From Chloroflexota bacterium (GTDB taxonomy: Bacteria > Chloroflexota > Dehalococcoidia > JACPPT01), in NCBI GenBank assembly GCA_016190815.1, contig JACPPT010000006.1, positions 2,723 to 66,722 on the forward strand: DNA of 64,000 bases, written 5' to 3'. Below are positions 731 to 37,374 of the stretch, in pieces. How positions within the stretch are numbered: position 1 is the stretch's first letter; every line of letters starts with the position of its first letter. A program made the translations under genes and the position numbers. The notes under the pieces were generated by a model. It saw only the letters and a program-made list of their open reading frames with translations. It was not told the origin of the DNA and searched no databases.

Positions 731-742
731 AAGACGAAGCAA

Positions 743-1372
743 TTAGATAGTAGAGCGCAGGAAGGTGTTCTGCCTCTTCTCCTGACCAATGGTGGAATGA
801 GGGCCATGCCCAGGTAGAATAACGGTCTCCTCTGGTAAGATCAGAAGTTTGCTCTTTATGCTGTTCATGAGATGGGCCCAGCTTCCGCCTGGAAGGTCGG
901 TTCTTCCAACGCCCATATTGAAGAGGGTATCGCCTGTAAAGACCACCCCGTGCCCGTAGAGACAAACTGCCCCAGGAGTATGGCCCGGAGTCTCTATAAC
1001 TGTGAAACGGAGAGTCCCGATTTCCAGGACATCTCCGCCTTTCAGGAATGTGTCCGGCTTTGGAGCCTCTATAAAATCAGGAATCACGCTGCTGCCATAG
1101 AGGGCACTCCCTTTCATCACCGCGATTTCCTTTTCATGAATGGCAAAAATTGCCTTCGTCCTTTCCTTTACAGTCGCCACCGCTCCAATGTGATCCACAT
1201 GACCGTGCGTGTTGATCAGCAGCTTTACTTTAACCCCCAGCTCGTCGACAAGCTTCAGAATGCGCCCGGCTTCAGCACCCGCATCGACAACAGCCGCCTC
1301 TTTTGTTGTTTCACATCCCACCACGTATGTGTTCTCAGAAAAAGGCCCAACGGGCAGCACTTTCAAAATCAT
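743..1372 (-). CDS. MBL-fold metallo-hydrolase (glyoxalase II-like)
   Basis: 209 aa with an HGHVDH metal-binding motif and the overall beta-lactamase-fold pattern. Confidence 0.75.
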   Translation of the reverse strand: MILKVLPVGPFSENTYVVGCETTKEAAVVDAGAEAGRILKLVDELGVKVKLLINTHGHVDHIGAVATVKERTKAIFAIHEKEIAVMKGSALYGSSVIPDFIEAPKPDTFLKGGDVLEIGTLRFTVIETPGHTPGAVCLYGHGVVFTGDTLFNMGVGRTDLPGGSWAHLMNSIKSKLLILPEETVILPGHGPHSTIGQEKRQNTFLRSTI

Positions 1373-1463
1373 CTATATACCTCCAATACACAGTATTTTA
1401 AATAATACAATGGTTGTCAACAAACAGGTCCTGTCCAAGAAGCAACGATTGGCCTGTAAGTAG

Positions 1464-1946
1464 CCATGACACAGACTGGGGACACCCCCTCTAGCTCCCC
1501 CTCTTAGGCGTAAGAGGGGGAGAAAAAAGAAGAAAACTTGGGGCACATCCCCAAACTCCTGCCATAAGGGGAGTTCCCCTTCTGGACTTCTCCCCCAAAA
1601 AGTAAATAAGGCTCCCCCTCCCTCTTCAGCAGAGGAGAGGAAGAAAGCTCAAGGGGGACACCCCCTGGAACCCCCGGAAGGGAACTAGGGTTCCCTTCAC
1701 CCTCCCGTAAAAGACACGGCTGGAGGGATGTTAAGAGGGTGTGGTATCACCACATCAAGAGGTCAGACCAAAAGAATCACCCATTGGGTGAAGCTAGCAG
1801 TATGCGAATCGCCGTTTTGGGGTATCCAAACTTTGGTTGCAGGCTTATGGATGGAGTGTTATCATTGTCTAAATTTGGACTTTGCAGAAGAAGCAATCTA
1901 TAGTGGAGGGGATATTTTGACAGACGAGTCGAAAAACAAGGTTGAC
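1464..1946 (+). promoter_or_regulatory. Long structured 5' leader upstream of glyQS, with multiple perfect G/C palindromes (candidate T-box or other attenuator, unconfirmed)
   Basis: About 480 nt of non-coding sequence before the conserved GlyRS start. Perfect stems include ctccccctctta/taagagggggag (about 1488-1519) and gaagggaac/gttcccttc. There is an imperfect T-box-like 'agggtgtggtatcacc' near 1735. Confidence 0.3.
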
Positions 1947-3407
1947 ATGAATGAAATCGTTTCCCTTTGCAAACGCAGAGGGATAATCTTTCCCTCCAGC
2001 GAGATATATGGCGGTCTGGGCAGCACCTGGGACTATGGCCCCCTGGGAGTGGAGCTTAAGCGCAACGTAAAGGACGCCTGGTGGAAGGCTGTGGTCCAGG
2101 AGCGGGAGGACATGGTAGGGCTGGACGCAGCCATCTTGATGCACCCGAAAACGTGGGAAGCCAGCGGCCACCTGGAGAGCTTCACCGACCCCCTGGTGGA
2201 GTGCAGGTTCTGCAACCAACGTTTTAGAGCAGACCAGATCTGGAGGGTCGAGTTTGTAGGGCAGGATGGAAAACCAGTTCACCGAACTACACTCGGAACG
2301 AGCCAAAAAGAAGTGATAGAATCATTTCGTGAGGAAGCGCGGCGGCATCAGCCGAATGGACTATTCTCTGTAAAAGGCCTTACTGAACTCACTGAAGAAG
2401 ACTATCGCACTCTTCGCTGCCCTTCTTGCGATTCTGTCGACAGTCTGACAAAGTCTCGTATGTTCAACCTGATGTTCAAGACCTTTATGGGCCCCGTGGA
2501 GGATGAGGCTTCCCAGATTTACCTCCGTCCTGAGACCGCCCAGGGCATATTCGTTAACTTTGAAAACGTGCTCAATAGCTCCCGAAGGAAGATGCCGTTC
2601 GGCATAGCACAAATAGGCAAGTCCTTCCGAAACGAGATAACCCCAGGCAACTTCACCTTTAGAAGCCGGGAGTTTGAGCAGATGGAGATCGAGTACTTCG
2701 TCAAGCCCGGCACCGACGAGGAGCAGCTTAAGTCCTGGGTAGAGGAGCGATTCCAATGGTACATAAATCTGGGGATAAAGAGGGAAAACCTGCGCATCAG
2801 GCCTCACGGGAAAGAAGAGCTTGCCCACTACGCCAAGGCCTGCTATGACATCGAGTACTCATTCCCCATGGGCTGGTCTGAGCTGGAGGGAATTGCCAAC
2901 CGAAGCGATTACGACCTGAAACAGCACACACAGTATAGCGGCAGAGACCTGAGCTACTTCGATGAGGAGACAGGCGAGCGCTATGTGCCATACGTAATTG
3001 AGCCATCGGGGGGCGTTGACCGAGCCATCCTTGCTTTCCTCGTTGATGCATATTATCAGGAAGAGGTGCGCGGTGAGACCCGGGTGATCCTGCGCCTGCA
3101 CAAGGCCCTGGCACCTGTAAAGGTAGCCGTCCTGCCGTTGAGTCGGAACGAAAAGCTCCTGCCCATGTCCCAGGAGGTCTACAAAAGTCTGAAGAGACAC
3201 TGGATGGTGAGCTACGATGATGCCCAGAGCATTGGCAGAAGATACAGAAGACAGGATGAGATAGGCACCCCCTTGTGTGTAACAATAGACTTCCAGTCCC
3301 TGGAGGACAAAGCGGTTACCATAAGGGATAGGGACAGTATGGAGCAGATAAGGGTGAGGGTGGAGGAACTTAAAGACGTTCTGCATCAAAAGCTGAGTGA
3401 GGAATAA
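1947..3407 (+). CDS. glyQS: Glycine--tRNA ligase (alpha2 homodimeric type)
   Basis: Full-length class II GlyRS homology. The conserved N-terminus [23 protein letters not shown] begins at the internal ATG at 1947. The ORF-track start at 1728 lies in the leader. Confidence 0.9.
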
Positions 3408-4665
3408 CCTGGTCAGATTCATTCACTTTTCAGACCTGCACATCGGGGTAGAAAACTACGGGCCTGTGAATCCAGAGAGCGGTTTTTCCTTCCGCCTGGA
3501 GGACTTCCTCGGGGTCTTTGACGAACTTGTGGATTTCGCTCTGGGGAACGACGTGGAGCTCGTCCTTTTCTGTGGAGATGCCTATAAAGGGAGAGAGCCC
3601 AGCCCAACACACCAGAGGGAGTTTGCCAAGAGGGTAGCAAGGCTTGCCCACAATGGCGTCAAAGTCTTTCTACTGGCGGGCAACCACGATATCCCTAACG
3701 CCAGAAACTACGCATCTGCGATAGAGATTTTTCAGACCCTCTCCACACCGAATGTGATCATTGCAGACAGGCCGGAAATATACCGAATTAAAACTAAAGA
3801 AGCCGTTTTACAGGTGGCAGCACTCCCCTGGCTTAAACGCAGCGGCCTTCTAAGTCGAGAGGAATACAAGGGTGTAACCTTCGAGGAGATGAACAGGGCC
3901 CTTGAGGAGACCCTCGCCAATAGTCTCATCACACATATAGAGAAACTAGATAGAGGTCTTCCCTCATTGCTTGCGGCCCATGTCACTGTCTCAACTGCCA
4001 AACTTGGCTCCGAGCGGAGCATGATGGTAGGCCAGGACCCCGTGCTCCTTCTGAGCAACCTGATGAACCCCGCCTTTGACTACGTTGCCCTGGGGCACAT
4101 CCACAAAGCCCAGGTGCTCTGCCAGAAGCCTCCTGTGGTCTACCCGGGAAGCCTGGAGCGGGTTGATTTCAGCGAAGAGGCTGACGATAAGGGGTTCTTC
4201 GTTGTAGATATGGACCCCAGAGGAAGCCCCGGCGAGAGGGTCATAGAATACCGCTTCCACAAGGTAAAAGCTCGCCCCTTCGTAACAATTGATGTGGAGA
4301 TCCCCGAAGGAGAAGACAACCCCACTGCGTTTGCGCTTAAGAGCATATCACAGAAGGACCTGTCCCAAGCCGTTGTCAGGGTAAACATAAAGGTTCCAGC
4401 TTCTATTGAAGGTCTTATTCGGGAGACTGAAGTCCGAAGAGCCATTCTTGAGAGAGGCGCCTTTTTCGTTGCCTGTGTGGCAAAAGAGATACAGACTCGC
4501 TCACAGCGGAGCGCCCGCCTGGGAGATCTTCCCGCGGAGAAGTTGACCCCTATAGAAACACTGAAACTATATCTGGAGCTAAAGAAGGTTCCTCATGAAA
4601 GGATTCCGCTTATCCTGGAATACGGAAGGAAATTAGTATCGGGTTCCCTGGCTCAGAGGGAATGA
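3397..4665 (+). CDS. sbcD: DNA double-strand-break repair nuclease SbcD/Mre11-family metallophosphoesterase
   Basis: Phosphoesterase motifs FSDLHIG, GDAYK, GNHD, GHIH and VVYPGS are present. The GTG start overlaps the glyQS stop. No sbcC follows. Confidence 0.7.
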
Positions 4666-4678
4666 GAAAGGAGACTTC

Positions 4679-5041
4679 ATGCCAGAGTTATTTTGGGATG
4701 TCCAGAAAGTTGCAAAGGAAAAGACACCTTCCCCCAAAGAACCTATAACATGGACCTACATGCATCAGGGTAAATATGCAACGTTAAATATTGTGCAGGC
4801 TCTGACGGAGATAAAGCCCCACATACACAAAGACCACGATGAGGTCGTATACATATTCTCCGGCAAAGGGAAATTCACCATAGGGGATATAACCCATGAT
4901 ATAGGACCCGGCACCGTATATTTTGTGCCAGCGGGGGTTGTGCATGGTGGAAAGATAGAGAACGGTGTCGCTGTATCGACATATGCCCCTTTCTTCGATT
5001 TCAAAAAGCCCGACAGAGTATGGGTCTCGGAGCAGAAATAA
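4679..5041 (+). CDS. Cupin domain protein
   Basis: 120 aa with a small beta-barrel signature (VPAGVVHGG). An RBS gaaaggag lies upstream. Confidence 0.65.
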   Translation: MPELFWDVQKVAKEKTPSPKEPITWTYMHQGKYATLNIVQALTEIKPHIHKDHDEVVYIFSGKGKFTIGDITHDIGPGTVYFVPAGVVHGGKIENGVAVSTYAPFFDFKKPDRVWVSEQK

Positions 5042-5053
5042 GCAGGCCTATTT

Positions 5054-5170
5054 CGGTTTTGTCCATAAAGCCTATTAGCAAGACCGCTGCCACTCTGAGC
5101 CCTTCGGCCCCAAGCGGGCCTCGAGGACAAGCTCCGCGAAGGGTCTGCCCTTATGACTTTTTGTGCAAGG
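5054..5170. mobile_element. MITE-like element, family B, copy 1 (about 117 bp), flanked by a 10-bp direct repeat ggcctatttc
   Basis: Shares its ends and a core (ctgagcccttcggcccc..ctccgc.aagggtctgc..tgactttttgtgcaaggcg) with the copy at 35774-35940. A direct repeat sits at 5044-5053 and 5171-5180. It lies between convergent gene ends. Confidence 0.6.
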
Positions 5171-5174
5171 CGGC

Positions 5175-6131
5175 CTATTTCAGAGAGGAAAGGATGGCTT
5201 CAGCGCCCTTCACCAAGTCCTGTACTACCTTATCGGCGCCGACTACGTCTGTTATTAGCCCTGCGTCCTCCCCACAATATAAGGGCCCATCCTCCAGCTT
5301 CCCATCAAGTAAAACAGCGCGGGCCCTTTCTGCCGACATGAGATCGATTACACCATCCCGAGCAGCCCCTTCTGACTCCAAAGAGAGAACTTTGGCAACA
5401 AACTTGCCCTTCAACACACGGCTATGTGTTAGGCTGCGGGTCAGTACAGTGGTGCCCGTATCTATCGCCTTTGCTATGGCTTCTTTGACATTCCTGTGAG
5501 CTATGCACTCAGTTGTTGTAATAAAACGAGTCCCGATCTGAATCCCATCAGCACCCAGGGCCAGGGCTGCTGCGAACCCTCTTCCATCGGCAATGCCCCC
5601 GGCGGCAATAACAGGTATTTCAACTGCATCCACAATTTGTGGAACCAGCACAAAGGTCGTCAGTTCGTCAAAACCGGTGTTCCCGCCGGCCTCATATCCT
5701 TCAGCTATGACGGCGTCCACTCCTGTTGCTTCTGCACGCTTGGCATGCCTAACCGAGGCCACCACATGCAACACCTTGACATTTGCGTTCTTGAGGTAGC
5801 TGGTGTAGAGTGCCGGATTGCCCGCGGATGTTATGGCCACTCGAATTCCACCCTCAACAGCCGCGTACATAAGCTTCTGGATATTGGGTAGATTGAGGTT
5901 AAAGGTAACACCAAAGGGTTTCTCAGTGAGGCGCTTTACCCTTTTCATCTGTTCTCGCAAGTTCTTTACTTCATCCCCACGCGCAGACATGCCGGCATTG
6001 GGAATGATAACCCCAAGGGCACCAGCGTTGGAAACGGCTGCTGCCAGCTCCGCACTGGATATCCATGCCATCCCCGCCTGGATGATGGGATATTCTATGC
6101 CCAGAAGCTGACAAACTCTTGTCCGTTTCAT
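5175..6131 (-). CDS. NAD(P)H-dependent flavin oxidoreductase of the nitronate monooxygenase / 2-nitropropane dioxygenase (FabK-like) family
   Basis: TIM-barrel FMN protein homology. The conserved start MKRTRVCQLLGIEYPIIQAGM is taken as the start. The ORF track begins 9 codons earlier. Confidence 0.75.
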   Translation of the reverse strand: MKRTRVCQLLGIEYPIIQAGMAWISSAELAAAVSNAGALGVIIPNAGMSARGDEVKNLREQMKRVKRLTEKPFGVTFNLNLPNIQKLMYAAVEGGIRVAITSAGNPALYTSYLKNANVKVLHVVASVRHAKRAEATGVDAVIAEGYEAGGNTGFDELTTFVLVPQIVDAVEIPVIAAGGIADGRGFAAALALGADGIQIGTRFITTTECIAHRNVKEAIAKAIDTGTTVLTRSLTHSRVLKGKFVAKVLSLESEGAARDGVIDLMSAERARAVLLDGKLEDGPLYCGEDAGLITDVVGADKVVQDLVKGAEAILSSLK

Positions 6132-6216
6132 TGTGGACTCTCCTTTCCAAACTACCATAGCTGGGTTTGGCTTTAGATTCTATTGACAAAGGAGCCGTCT
6201 GTCAATGCTGCGTGTC

Positions 6217-18954: not shown

Positions 18955-19052
18955 ATCGTTTACAAACCCCGTTCGCCCTGAGCTTTGTCGAAGGGCCGTT
19001 CATGGTTCGACAAGCTCACCACGAACGACTAGAACAGTTGTTAAACGCTCTC
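18955..19052. mobile_element. MITE-like element, family A, copy 1 (about 98 bp, 58-bp identical core, internal extended hairpin)
   Basis: About 93% identical to 37195-37290. The core ccgttcgccctgagctttgtcgaagggccgttcatggttcgacaagctcaccacgaacg contains a nested inverted repeat. Near-direct flank repeats are ttttatgac and ttttgtgac. Confidence 0.6.
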
Positions 19053-19065
19053 TTTTGTGACGGTT

Positions 19066-35340: not shown

Positions 35341-35751
35341 ATGCTTGAGGACTTGTTGGGAGGATTTGATAGTTGGGCTCCCCTGGCGCTGAGAATAGCA
35401 GTGGGTGTGATATTCATAGCCCACGGCTGGCCCAAGCTGAAAGCGCCCAAACAAACAGCCCAGTTCGTCGGAAGCATAGGGCTGCGCCCAGCCCTCTTCT
35501 GGGCAATGGTAGTTGGGCTGGTGGAGTTCCTTGGAGGACTCGGGCTTGTTGTGGGACTTCTTACCCGCTGGGCTGCACTTTTCCTCGCCATTAACATGAT
35601 AGGAGCCATAGTAACAGTCAAGTGGAAGAAGGGGCTTGTGAACGGCTATGAACTAGACCTGGCGCTCCTTGCAGCCAGTATTGCCCTTATGCTCACCGGA
35701 GGCGGTAGCTTTTCCGTGGACGCGAACATCCTGAGCGACATCAAGTTCTAG
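35341..35751 (+). CDS. DoxX-family membrane protein
   Basis: 136 aa, 4 TM, DoxX pattern. Confidence 0.7.
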   Translation: MLEDLLGGFDSWAPLALRIAVGVIFIAHGWPKLKAPKQTAQFVGSIGLRPALFWAMVVGLVEFLGGLGLVVGLLTRWAALFLAINMIGAIVTVKWKKGLVNGYELDLALLAASIALMLTGGGSFSVDANILSDIKF

Positions 35752-35773
35752 CCCTGTCCTGGGGAAGAAACCT

Positions 35774-35940
35774 AGCTTTGCACATAAAGCCCCTTAGAAA
35801 GGCTGTTGTCACCCTGAGCCCTTCGGCCCCGAGTGGGCCTCGAGAGCCTGCCCTGAATATAATGAAGGGGCAGGCTCCGCAAGGGTCTGCTTCTTAGCTA
35901 GATTCTTCGCTGCGCTCAGAATGACTTTTTGTGCAAGGCG
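35774..35940. mobile_element. MITE-like element, family B, copy 2 (about 167 bp), flanked by a perfect 10-bp target-site duplication gaagaaacct. It is inserted into the 3' end of hemW.
   Basis: Direct repeat at 35764-35773 and 35941-35950. Terminal inverted repeats cttTGCACAtAAAG / CTTTtTGTGCAagg. Internal 9-bp hairpin agcctgccc/gggcaggct. Homologous to copy 1 at 5054-5170. Confidence 0.7.
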
Positions 35941-37141
35941 GAAGAAACCTCACAAACACCTCATTGCCCAGGAGTCGGCCTCTCTGGGTGAGGTATAGGT
36001 ATCCGTTTGCCTGTGCCAGGAGCCCCAGAACCTTGAATTCCCCTATCTGCGTTTCGTAGATGGATGTGACCTCTTTCCCAAAGCGCTGGGCAAAAGCTGC
36101 CAGTTCCACGCCTCTAACAAGCCTCAGGCCGAGAATCATCGTCTCCGCCATCTCCAGCGATTCATCTATATTTTCCGAATCCCTTACTGGGCCAAGCTTT
36201 CGAATAGTTTCCGCAGAAAGAGCACCCTGTATACCCTGGGTAGCTTCCCGTGCCAGATCGCCTGTTTTTTCAATATATGTCCTGGGTCTCAGAACGTTGG
36301 AGAAACGAAAGCGACCCAAAAAGGAGTGGGCACCTGCACCCAGACCGAGATAGGGTCTGTTCAGCCAGTATGTCATATTGTGAAGGCACTCCTTTTGAGG
36401 TTTTGCCCAGTTTGAGATTTCGTAGTGGGTGTAGCCGGCCTTTCCCAGCATTTCCTCAGCCATTACGTACATGTCAGCCGCCAGGTCCTGATCAGGCTCC
36501 GCCACAGAGCCAGAGCGCACCTCTTTCCACATGGGGGTGTCTTCTTCAATCTGAAGGGCATACAGAGACAAATGCTCCGTCTCCAGAACCAGGGACTGCT
36601 TCAGGGTTGCCTCCCACTCGCCGAGGGTCTGGCCTGGCAAACCGTAGATCAAGTCCAAATTTGTGTTGATAAAGCCGGCCCTTCTGGCAAGGCGGCAGGC
36701 ATCTATCGCTTCTTGTGAGGTGTGTCGGCGACCGAGGGCCTTTAAATGGCCGTCATTGAAAATCTGGACACCGATGCTCAGCCGATTCACACCCAGGGAA
36801 AGCAATCCCCTTAGAAACCCAAAGCTCAGGTCGCCGGGGTTGGACTCGATGGTTATCTCAGCATCTGGCGAGACGTTCATGAACCTACGGCATTGTCCCA
36901 GCACACGCCCGACATCGCCAAGAGACAAAAGGGATGGCGTTCCACCGCCAAAGAAGATGGTCCTGACATCGGCCCGGCCTTTCAGGGCTTGGCCCCAGAG
37001 ACCTATCTCCTCCTCCAAAGCATCTACGTATTGGGGAATCAACCCCTCAAGGCCTGCGTAGGTATTGAAGTGGCAATAGTTGCACCTGGAGGCACAGAAC
37101 GGGATATGCAAATAAAGGCCCAGGTTTTCTCTAAAGGTCAT
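35894..37141 (-). CDS. hemW: Radical SAM heme chaperone HemW (coproporphyrinogen III oxidase-like); the C-terminal 16 aa are read from the inserted MITE
   Basis: CASRCNYCHF radical-SAM motif and HemN-like C-terminal domain. The stop codon lies inside repeat element B. Confidence 0.8.
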   Translation of the reverse strand: MTFRENLGLYLHIPFCASRCNYCHFNTYAGLEGLIPQYVDALEEEIGLWGQALKGRADVRTIFFGGGTPSLLSLGDVGRVLGQCRRFMNVSPDAEITIESNPGDLSFGFLRGLLSLGVNRLSIGVQIFNDGHLKALGRRHTSQEAIDACRLARRAGFINTNLDLIYGLPGQTLGEWEATLKQSLVLETEHLSLYALQIEEDTPMWKEVRSGSVAEPDQDLAADMYVMAEEMLGKAGYTHYEISNWAKPQKECLHNMTYWLNRPYLGLGAGAHSFLGRFRFSNVLRPRTYIEKTGDLAREATQGIQGALSAETIRKLGPVRDSENIDESLEMAETMILGLRLVRGVELAAFAQRFGKEVTSIYETQIGEFKVLGLLAQANGYLYLTQRGRLLGNEVFVRFLPPCTKSHSERSEESS

Positions 37142-37194: not shown

Positions 37195-37290
37195 ATCGTT
37201 TATAGACCCGTTCGCCCTGAGCTTTGTCGAAGGGCCGTTCATGGTTCGACAAGCTCACCACGAACGGCTAGACAGTTTTTAAACGCTCTC
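37195..37290. mobile_element. MITE-like element, family A, copy 2
   Basis: About 93% identical to 18955-19052 over about 96 bp. It lies in the divergent hemW/selB intergenic region. Confidence 0.6.
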
Positions 37291-37374
37291 TATGCAAGCC
37301 TCAGCTACAAGATACCCCGGAAATGGATTGCGTGCGTAGCTGGCATTATGTTATATTTGAACCACCGAGGTATT

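Follow-up and report, generated by a model that had tools for sequence, protein, structure and literature searches.

The 64,000-nt stretch analysed here, from the genome of an uncultured groundwater Chloroflexi bacterium (contig JACPPT010000006.1; hereafter the window), carries between the convergent genes doxX and hemW a 167-bp sequence that is best read as a non-autonomous transposable element of the miniature inverted-repeat kind (MITE), with insertion sequences of the IS903 group as its relatives. The probability of this reading is put at roughly 0.85. It rests on the anatomy of the element (copy A), on target-site duplications found across its family, on ends that it has in common with transposase-bearing elements, and on the change that it has made to the hemW reading frame. 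All the features by which bacterial MITEs are recognized are found here: small size, no transposase, inverted repeats, a duplication, dispersed copies, and the termini of transposase-bearing elements.

Copy A occupies positions 35774–35940, a span delimited from the sequence and from its alignment to the family, and is bracketed by a perfect direct repeat, GAAGAAACCT, at 35764–35773 and 35941–35950, exactly where an earlier note on this DNA had placed it (no strand is assigned to the elements, their duplications or the hairpin). A G stands immediately to the left of each repeat copy (35763 and 35940), so that the literal direct repeat is 11 bp long. The terminal inverted repeats reported in that note are present and imperfect, with 14 of 18 positions pairing between the two ends: the left one, AGCTTTGCACATAAAGCC (35774–35791, plus strand), agrees with the family consensus GGCTTTGCACAAAAAGTC at 15 of 18 positions, and the right one (35923–35940, minus strand; GACTTTTTGTGCAAGGCG as read on the forward strand, CGCCTTGCACAAAAAGTC as its reverse complement) at 16 of 18. 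Further inward lie the left subterminal module GTCACCCTGAGC (35808–35819, plus strand), also present in family members from soil, and its inverted counterpart, the right subterminal module AGATTCTTCGCTGCGCTCAGAATGAC (35900–35925, plus strand), which is kept in three metagenome members (L006, L007, and L009), is deleted in copy B (see below), and encodes on its minus strand the residues SHSERSEES of the HemW tail. Copy A aligns with the same three members over its first ~47 nt and last ~40 nt. Its internal GC-rich hairpin (35844–35877; arms 35844–35854 and 35867–35877, with a 12-nt loop) has 11 pairs, ten Watson-Crick and one G-U, instead of the 9 bp first counted; it is missing from copy B, and other family members have a different hairpin at the same position. 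Apart from the tail of hemW that runs on into copy A, the open reading frames (ORFs) in this copy and in copy B are spurious, and no transposase gene is among them. Identical 10-mers 100–200 nt apart have a chance of 2.5e-6 at the frequency measured in the window; together with flanking repeats in two independent copies, in the same register relative to the shared terminus, this figure excludes the chance match against which the earlier note had cautioned. The sole other public contig that encodes an identical DoxX (Logan contig L001, 1091 bp, from SRR12113390) already carries the element and stops 63 nt into it, just beyond the core common to copies A and B, as is expected where an assembly breaks at a repeat.

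The insertion altered the end of hemW (35894–37141, minus strand), which encodes a radical-SAM haem chaperone of 415 aa, identical to NCBI MBI2846320.1 from a Chloroflexi metagenome-assembled genome (MAG). Its convergent neighbour, doxX (136 aa; 35341–35751, plus strand), has its stop codon at 35749–35751, 12 nt before the left duplication. The present HemW ends in ...RFLPPCTKSHSERSEESS, and its TAA stop (35894–35896) lies within the element, as the earlier note had seen: the right repeat copy encodes, on the minus strand, the conserved R-F-L of HemW, the element encodes the subsequent PPCTKSHSERSEESS, and all residues past ...RFLP, the last 14 codons of the gene, come from the element together with the stop. 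Deletion of 35774–35950 in silico yields a HemW of 407 aa ending in ...VFVRFLPQDRART (RFLPQDRART), with the hemW stop at 35741–35743 and an overlap of 11 nt with doxX, which bears out the proposal that excision restores a convergent, overlapping pair; the predicted empty site would read ...GGGGAAGAAACCT joined directly to CACAAACACC. HemW homologues terminate 0–7 residues past the conserved ...NEVFxRFL. The insertion accounts for the atypical 15-residue tail of HemW and for the spacing of doxX and hemW, which now lie 142 bp apart and do not overlap. The changed tail is presumably neutral, and the element may also affect the regulation of the convergent doxX and hemW transcripts.

The second element in the window, copy B (5055–5172, 118 bp), has neither the hairpin nor the right subterminal module seen in copy A and lies between convergent ORFs at 4679–5041 (plus strand) and 5175–6158 (minus strand). 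In the register of the family its duplication is the 9-bp GCCTATTTC (5046–5054 and 5173–5181); the literal repeat is the 10-mer GGCCTATTTC (5045–5054 and 5172–5181), in which the G at 5045 coincides with the G at 5172. The earlier description of a real, shorter copy between convergent genes flanked by that 10-mer stands, but the coordinates given there (5054–5170) are replaced by those above, and one base of the supposed 10-bp duplication is a coincidental match. The right duplication copy holds the TAG stop (5175–5177, minus strand) of the 327-aa gene at 5175–6158, so that this gene was left unaltered by the insertion. Before insertion, the stop codons of the two convergent genes (5039–5041 and 5175–5177) were just 6 nt apart.

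Copies A and B have identical terminal 20 nt and the motif AAGGGTCTGC in common, are 82% identical over the left 68 nt that both possess, and are set apart by two large indels. The left terminus of copy B, GGTTTTGTCCATAAAGCC, is decayed (13 of 18 positions to the consensus), its own two ends match at 11 of 18 positions, and the four ends of the window copies score 13–16 of 18 to the consensus. With such divergence between the copies and such decay in copy B, the "recently active" of the earlier note is not demonstrated; the perfect 9–10-bp duplications are only a weak clock, and the right duplication copy of A is under selection on the RFL codons. Beyond A and B, the 64-kb window holds no more copies.

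Relatives of both copies are found in public metagenomes and genomes. In a metagenome scan, 13 loci carried an exact match to the 19-nt right end, at least seven of them being complete 119–222-nt elements with both termini, and a genome scan with the 17-nt terminus GCYTTGCACAAAAAGTC returned at least 120 loci. Among the genome matches listed, most come from Pyrinomonadaceae and Blastocatellia, several from Dehalococcoidia or Chloroflexi, and further ones from Verrucomicrobiota, Planctomycetota, and Abditibacteriaceae. At least 65 inverted terminal pairs stand 96–340 nt apart (133 loci, from many MAGs). When element boundaries are placed one base outside GC...GC, the flanks compared over all pairs have an identity of 0.60–0.75 at exactly nine positions and 0.2–0.3 elsewhere; the outer base is predominantly G at the left end and C at the right one, which makes the consensus terminus GGCTTTGCACAAAAAGTC. 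Among 62 scored members, duplications at 80% identity or more are 9 bp long in 25 and 10 bp long in three, the remaining 34 being decayed. Other copies thus do show duplications, a check proposed in the earlier note, and the non-autonomous family with 10-bp duplications described there is real, as is the 10-bp duplication of copy A, but the usual length is 9 bp: copy A belongs to the rarer 10-bp class and copy B to the 9-bp class. Two near-identical 142-nt members (L006 and L009) occupy separate sites with different duplications, which indicates that what transposes is the small element itself. The 26-nt core inside copies A and B had no match in the genome contigs of species representatives, among which the source MAG is not included, and is private to this lineage.

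Family copies span the phyla Acidobacteriota, Chloroflexota, Verrucomicrobiota, and Planctomycetota, and may extend to DPANN archaeal bins. A complete 155-nt member with an 8/9 duplication lies at 3269–3423 of a contig (L056) from a MAG labelled Candidatus Aenigmatarchaeota, and a Woesearchaeota MAG of the same groundwater project has a terminus match (L071); these two archaeal-bin matches could reflect mis-binning or cross-domain spread.

Transposase-bearing elements with the same ends, for which the earlier note had suggested a search, were found in other genomes (L144, L149, and L150). A scan of viral contigs identified a 3890-bp transposon at 740–4629 of an IMG/VR viral contig (L144; the same element is in L145–L147), with termini GGCTTTGCACCAAAAGTC and GGCTTTGCACAAAAAGTC and a perfect 9-bp duplication, AGCCTATGC. 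It encodes a transposase in which a SWIM zinc finger is joined to a DDE_Tnp_1 domain (PF01609, E = 2.5e-18), and it also has a 159-aa ORF and a gene for an N6_N4 methyltransferase to which a restriction-endonuclease-like domain is fused. When viral contigs were searched for relatives of this transposase, only the same element, in two related contigs, was returned; the type has thousands of ~400-aa relatives, several of them annotated in Chloroflexi and Dehalococcoidia MAGs, and full-length relatives from these groups were examined at three loci (L148, L149, and L150). The 3360-bp element in L150 (Chloroflexi MAG GCA_016179845.1, 1597–4956) carries a DUF488 gene as passenger, and the 10-bp duplication that flanks it, GGGGACTCCC, is perfect; of the first 18 positions of its transposase-proximal end, AGCTTTGCACATAAACCCCCGTTAGG, 17 agree with the left end of copy A, AGCTTTGCACATAAAGCCCCTTAGAA. 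The element in L149, from a Dehalococcoidia MAG, has GGCCTTGCAC at both ends and a 9/10 flank match in the 10-bp register. In L148 the left end is present, and a methyltransferase gene comes after the transposase gene; the cargo in both L144 and L148 is an N6_N4 DNA methyltransferase that includes a restriction-endonuclease-like domain. Two full-length copies are on contigs classed as viral. When ORFs beside 49 unpaired termini in the fetched loci were clustered, no recurrent transposase emerged. The MAGs of the window and of L150 have protein accessions in the same series, and the Logan runs SRR12113390 and SRR12113432 are near neighbours; the two MAGs probably come from the same groundwater study.

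The target sites of L150, L149, and L148 (GGGGACTCCC, GGGACACCCC/GGGATACCCC, and GGGGTGTCCC, respectively) are alike, G/C-rich, and partly palindromic, which suggests that the full-length elements have a target preference not common to the MITE sites GAAGAAACCT and GCCTATTTC.

The enzymes of these candidate partners connect the family to IS903. Their best NCBIfam model is transpos_IS5_2 (NF033579, cut-off 140 bits), matched over its full length at 120–131 bits; the IS903 and ISAha2 transposases, from copies on plasmids, reach 339–409 bits on it. The ends of the plasmid copies of IS903 type and of ISAha2 are GGCTTTGTTGAATAAATCG and GGGCTTTGTTGCACAAACC. In alignments to IS903 and ISAha2 the partner proteins are 23–27% identical to them, and the catalytic D, D, and E and the Y-R-E-K residues are invariant. 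Scores of 120–131 bits against a cut-off of 140 make the partner transposases distant relatives of the IS903 group and not members by the curated threshold. As for the features that define the group, ends that begin with GGC and a 9-bp duplication are found in the family consensus, GGCTTTGCAC..., copy A having 10 bp; the typical ~1-kb element with a single ~300-aa transposase is not what the partners are, since they span 3.4–3.9 kb and have passenger genes and a ~90-aa SWIM extension. As judged from sequence comparison, the window element probably functions like an IS903-group MITE, with distant relatives of that group as its probable parents.

Several observations weigh against this reading. 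The partner transposases remain under the IS5_2 cut-off, and they come with an extra SWIM domain and on cargo transposons instead of ~1-kb insertion sequences. These elements are located in other genomes than that of copy A, and no transposase with such ends is found in the 64-kb window. Similarity between the MITEs and the partners is limited to ~20–30 terminal nucleotides, and each partner end has two or three subterminal CTGCACAAAAAGT repeats that the MITEs lack. The termini of the window copies depart from the consensus at 2–5 of 18 positions and, instead of GGC, start with AGC, GGT, or CGC. There is also no empty hemW/doxX site for comparison: exact look-ups of HemW and YchF returned no match and hence no such site, and the nearest HemW homologue, at 62% identity, is too distant for the junction to be compared. 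That the SWIM-DDE transposons are the actual partner of the window copies is likely, though less certain than the identity of copy A as a MITE.

Mobilization by a transposase of another family, either IS4 (IS231 or ISH8 type) or IS481, is improbable. IS4 enzymes of the IS231 and ISH8 types make 10–12-bp duplications, and that of copy A is 10 bp (literally 11) instead of the usual 9; yet the elements that share its termini encode IS903-like enzymes and themselves make both 9-bp and 10-bp duplications, and IS4 models reach only 36–40 bits on the partner enzymes. The case for IS481 comes from a single terminal pair of the family type (L063) that encloses an IS481-family transposase. IS481 was rejected as the autonomous partner: elements in L135, L136, and L138 that are homologous to the one enclosed by the L063 pair (1663 bp apart) are without GCTTTGCAC termini and end at their own TGT...ACA repeats (1763–3090 in L135), so that L063 is an IS481 element nested in a MITE. 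In L063 (261–1925; Acidobacteria MAG RYN_26) a 1.33-kb IS481-family element inside a ~335-bp GGCTTTGCAC-family MITE thus mimics an autonomous element; the host MITE retains a perfect 9-bp duplication, CTCCGACGG.

Still less probable is that the window copies are remnants of full-length transposons that underwent internal deletion in place and never moved as small elements. MITEs do arise from internal deletions, the full-length relatives share only the terminal 20–30 nt with the copies, and copy B looks as if it arose by further deletion from an A-like element. However, an internal core (CTGAGCCCTTCGGCCCC..GGGCCTCGAG and AAGGGTCTGC) is present in both A and B and missing from the transposon ends, and copy A has subterminal modules in common with the soil MITEs L006, L007, and L009. 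Two independent deletions in place are an unlikely source of the copies, as they would not yield the same internal sequence, and the common core indicates instead that the ancestor of both was already miniature when it reached the two sites.

Least likely of all is a structured element selected by the host (an RNA hairpin, a terminator, or a repetitive extragenic palindromic, or REP, sequence) with a flanking repeat that would be incidental. In its favour, copy A has a strong fold (−77.4 kcal/mol, z = −5.05) and both copies are situated between convergent gene ends, but the fold of copy A results from its inverted repeats pairing with each other, shuffled sequence folds as well as copy B does (z = −1.31), and the family has target-site duplications, which REP elements are not known to make. 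Rfam gave no match in the window at the gathering threshold (one match, at E = 0.067, is at chance level), and promoter and terminator scans were likewise negative, with no terminator-like site. REP sequences and the bacterial interspersed mosaic elements (BIMEs) of proteobacteria resemble the present family in being short, structured, intergenic, and often placed between convergent genes; REP elements are not known to have a target-site duplication or long terminal inverted repeats and are tied to RAYT (IS200/IS605-like) enzymes, whereas the family described here has both of these features.

On the preferred reading of copy A as an IS903-related MITE, a DDE transposase acting in trans would bind both terminal inverted repeats, cut the element out or copy it, and join it to staggered cuts 9–10 bp apart, with gap repair then producing the flanking duplication. 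The target was the 3′ end of hemW, at that time overlapping the end of the convergent doxX. The duplication kept the conserved ...NEVFVRFL end of HemW, with the frame running on into the element so that an ancestral 7-residue tail (PQDRART) became the 15-residue tail PPCTKSHSERSEESS, and the insertion shifted doxX and hemW 177 bp apart. Most likely the mobilizer is a transposase of ~400 aa that has a SWIM domain at its N-terminus and an IS903-like DDE domain and is borne on 3.4–3.9-kb cargo transposons; this SWIM-DDE family would have moved both window copies, by cut-and-paste or replicative chemistry. A co-resident transposase would in this model have AGCTTTGCACATAAA-type ends.

The closest described analogue is the pair MITEAba12/ISAba12 (relatives ISAha2 and ISAba13; IS5 family, IS903 group). 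MITEAba12 of Acinetobacter is a non-coding element of 113 bp with 16-bp terminal inverted repeats, GGCTTTGTTGCACAAA, and 9-bp duplications; a DDE transposase mobilizes it in trans, and only at the termini is it identical to the parent ISAba12 (PMC6382973). Its termini resemble GGCTTTGCACAAAAAGTC, and the candidate partner transposases match transpos_IS5_2, as those of ISAha2 and IS903 do. The two systems differ in their hosts (Chloroflexota, Acidobacteriota, and other phyla here; Moraxellaceae there), in composition (the present family is GC-rich with modular internal hairpins, whereas MITEAba12 is 78% AT), and in their candidate partners, which here are 3.4–3.9-kb cargo transposons with an N-terminal SWIM domain, with duplications of 9 or 10 bp. 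IS903 itself is likewise similar in its ends, which begin GGCTTTG (GGCTTTGTTG... in a Klebsiella plasmid copy, L153, where a 9-bp duplication, ATACAGACG, is directly seen), and in a DDE_Tnp_1 domain with Y-R-E-K. Unlike the non-autonomous window element, it is autonomous, ~1.06 kb long, with a 307-aa transposase, and the probable partner of the window element is larger, with passenger genes and the SWIM domain.

The window also contains a second small repeat family, which may be another MITE or a REP-like element. Its two ~100-nt copies (18968–19053 and 37207–37291) are 98% identical over 86 nt and contain the hairpin modules GCCCTGAGCTTTGTCGAAGGGC and GTTCATGGTTCGACAAGCTCACCACGAAC; one of them stands between the start of hemW (37141) and that of a selB-like gene (37348), which are divergent.

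The insertion at the hemW/doxX junction is a real but ordinary type of event, and it alters no general concept of transposition. Literature searches found no description of this terminus, of MITEs in Chloroflexi, or of SWIM-IS5 transposases, and a cross-phylum MITE family of uncultured soil and groundwater bacteria has apparently gone undescribed so far. A bolder and tentative proposal, which is rather doubtful at present, is that the GGCTTTGCAC MITEs and the SWIM-DDE cargo transposons form an undescribed IS903-related sub-lineage that crosses phyla, partly on phage genomes. As part of that proposal, the conserved GTCAYYCTGAGC...GAAGRRTC modules could widely supply short run-on C-terminal peptides and structured 3′ ends in uncultured bacteria. 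Repeats of this kind cause breaks in metagenome assemblies and give rise to ORFs that are spurious or extended, for which reason a defined consensus (GGCTTTGCACAAAAAGTC with a 9–10-bp duplication) is useful in annotation.

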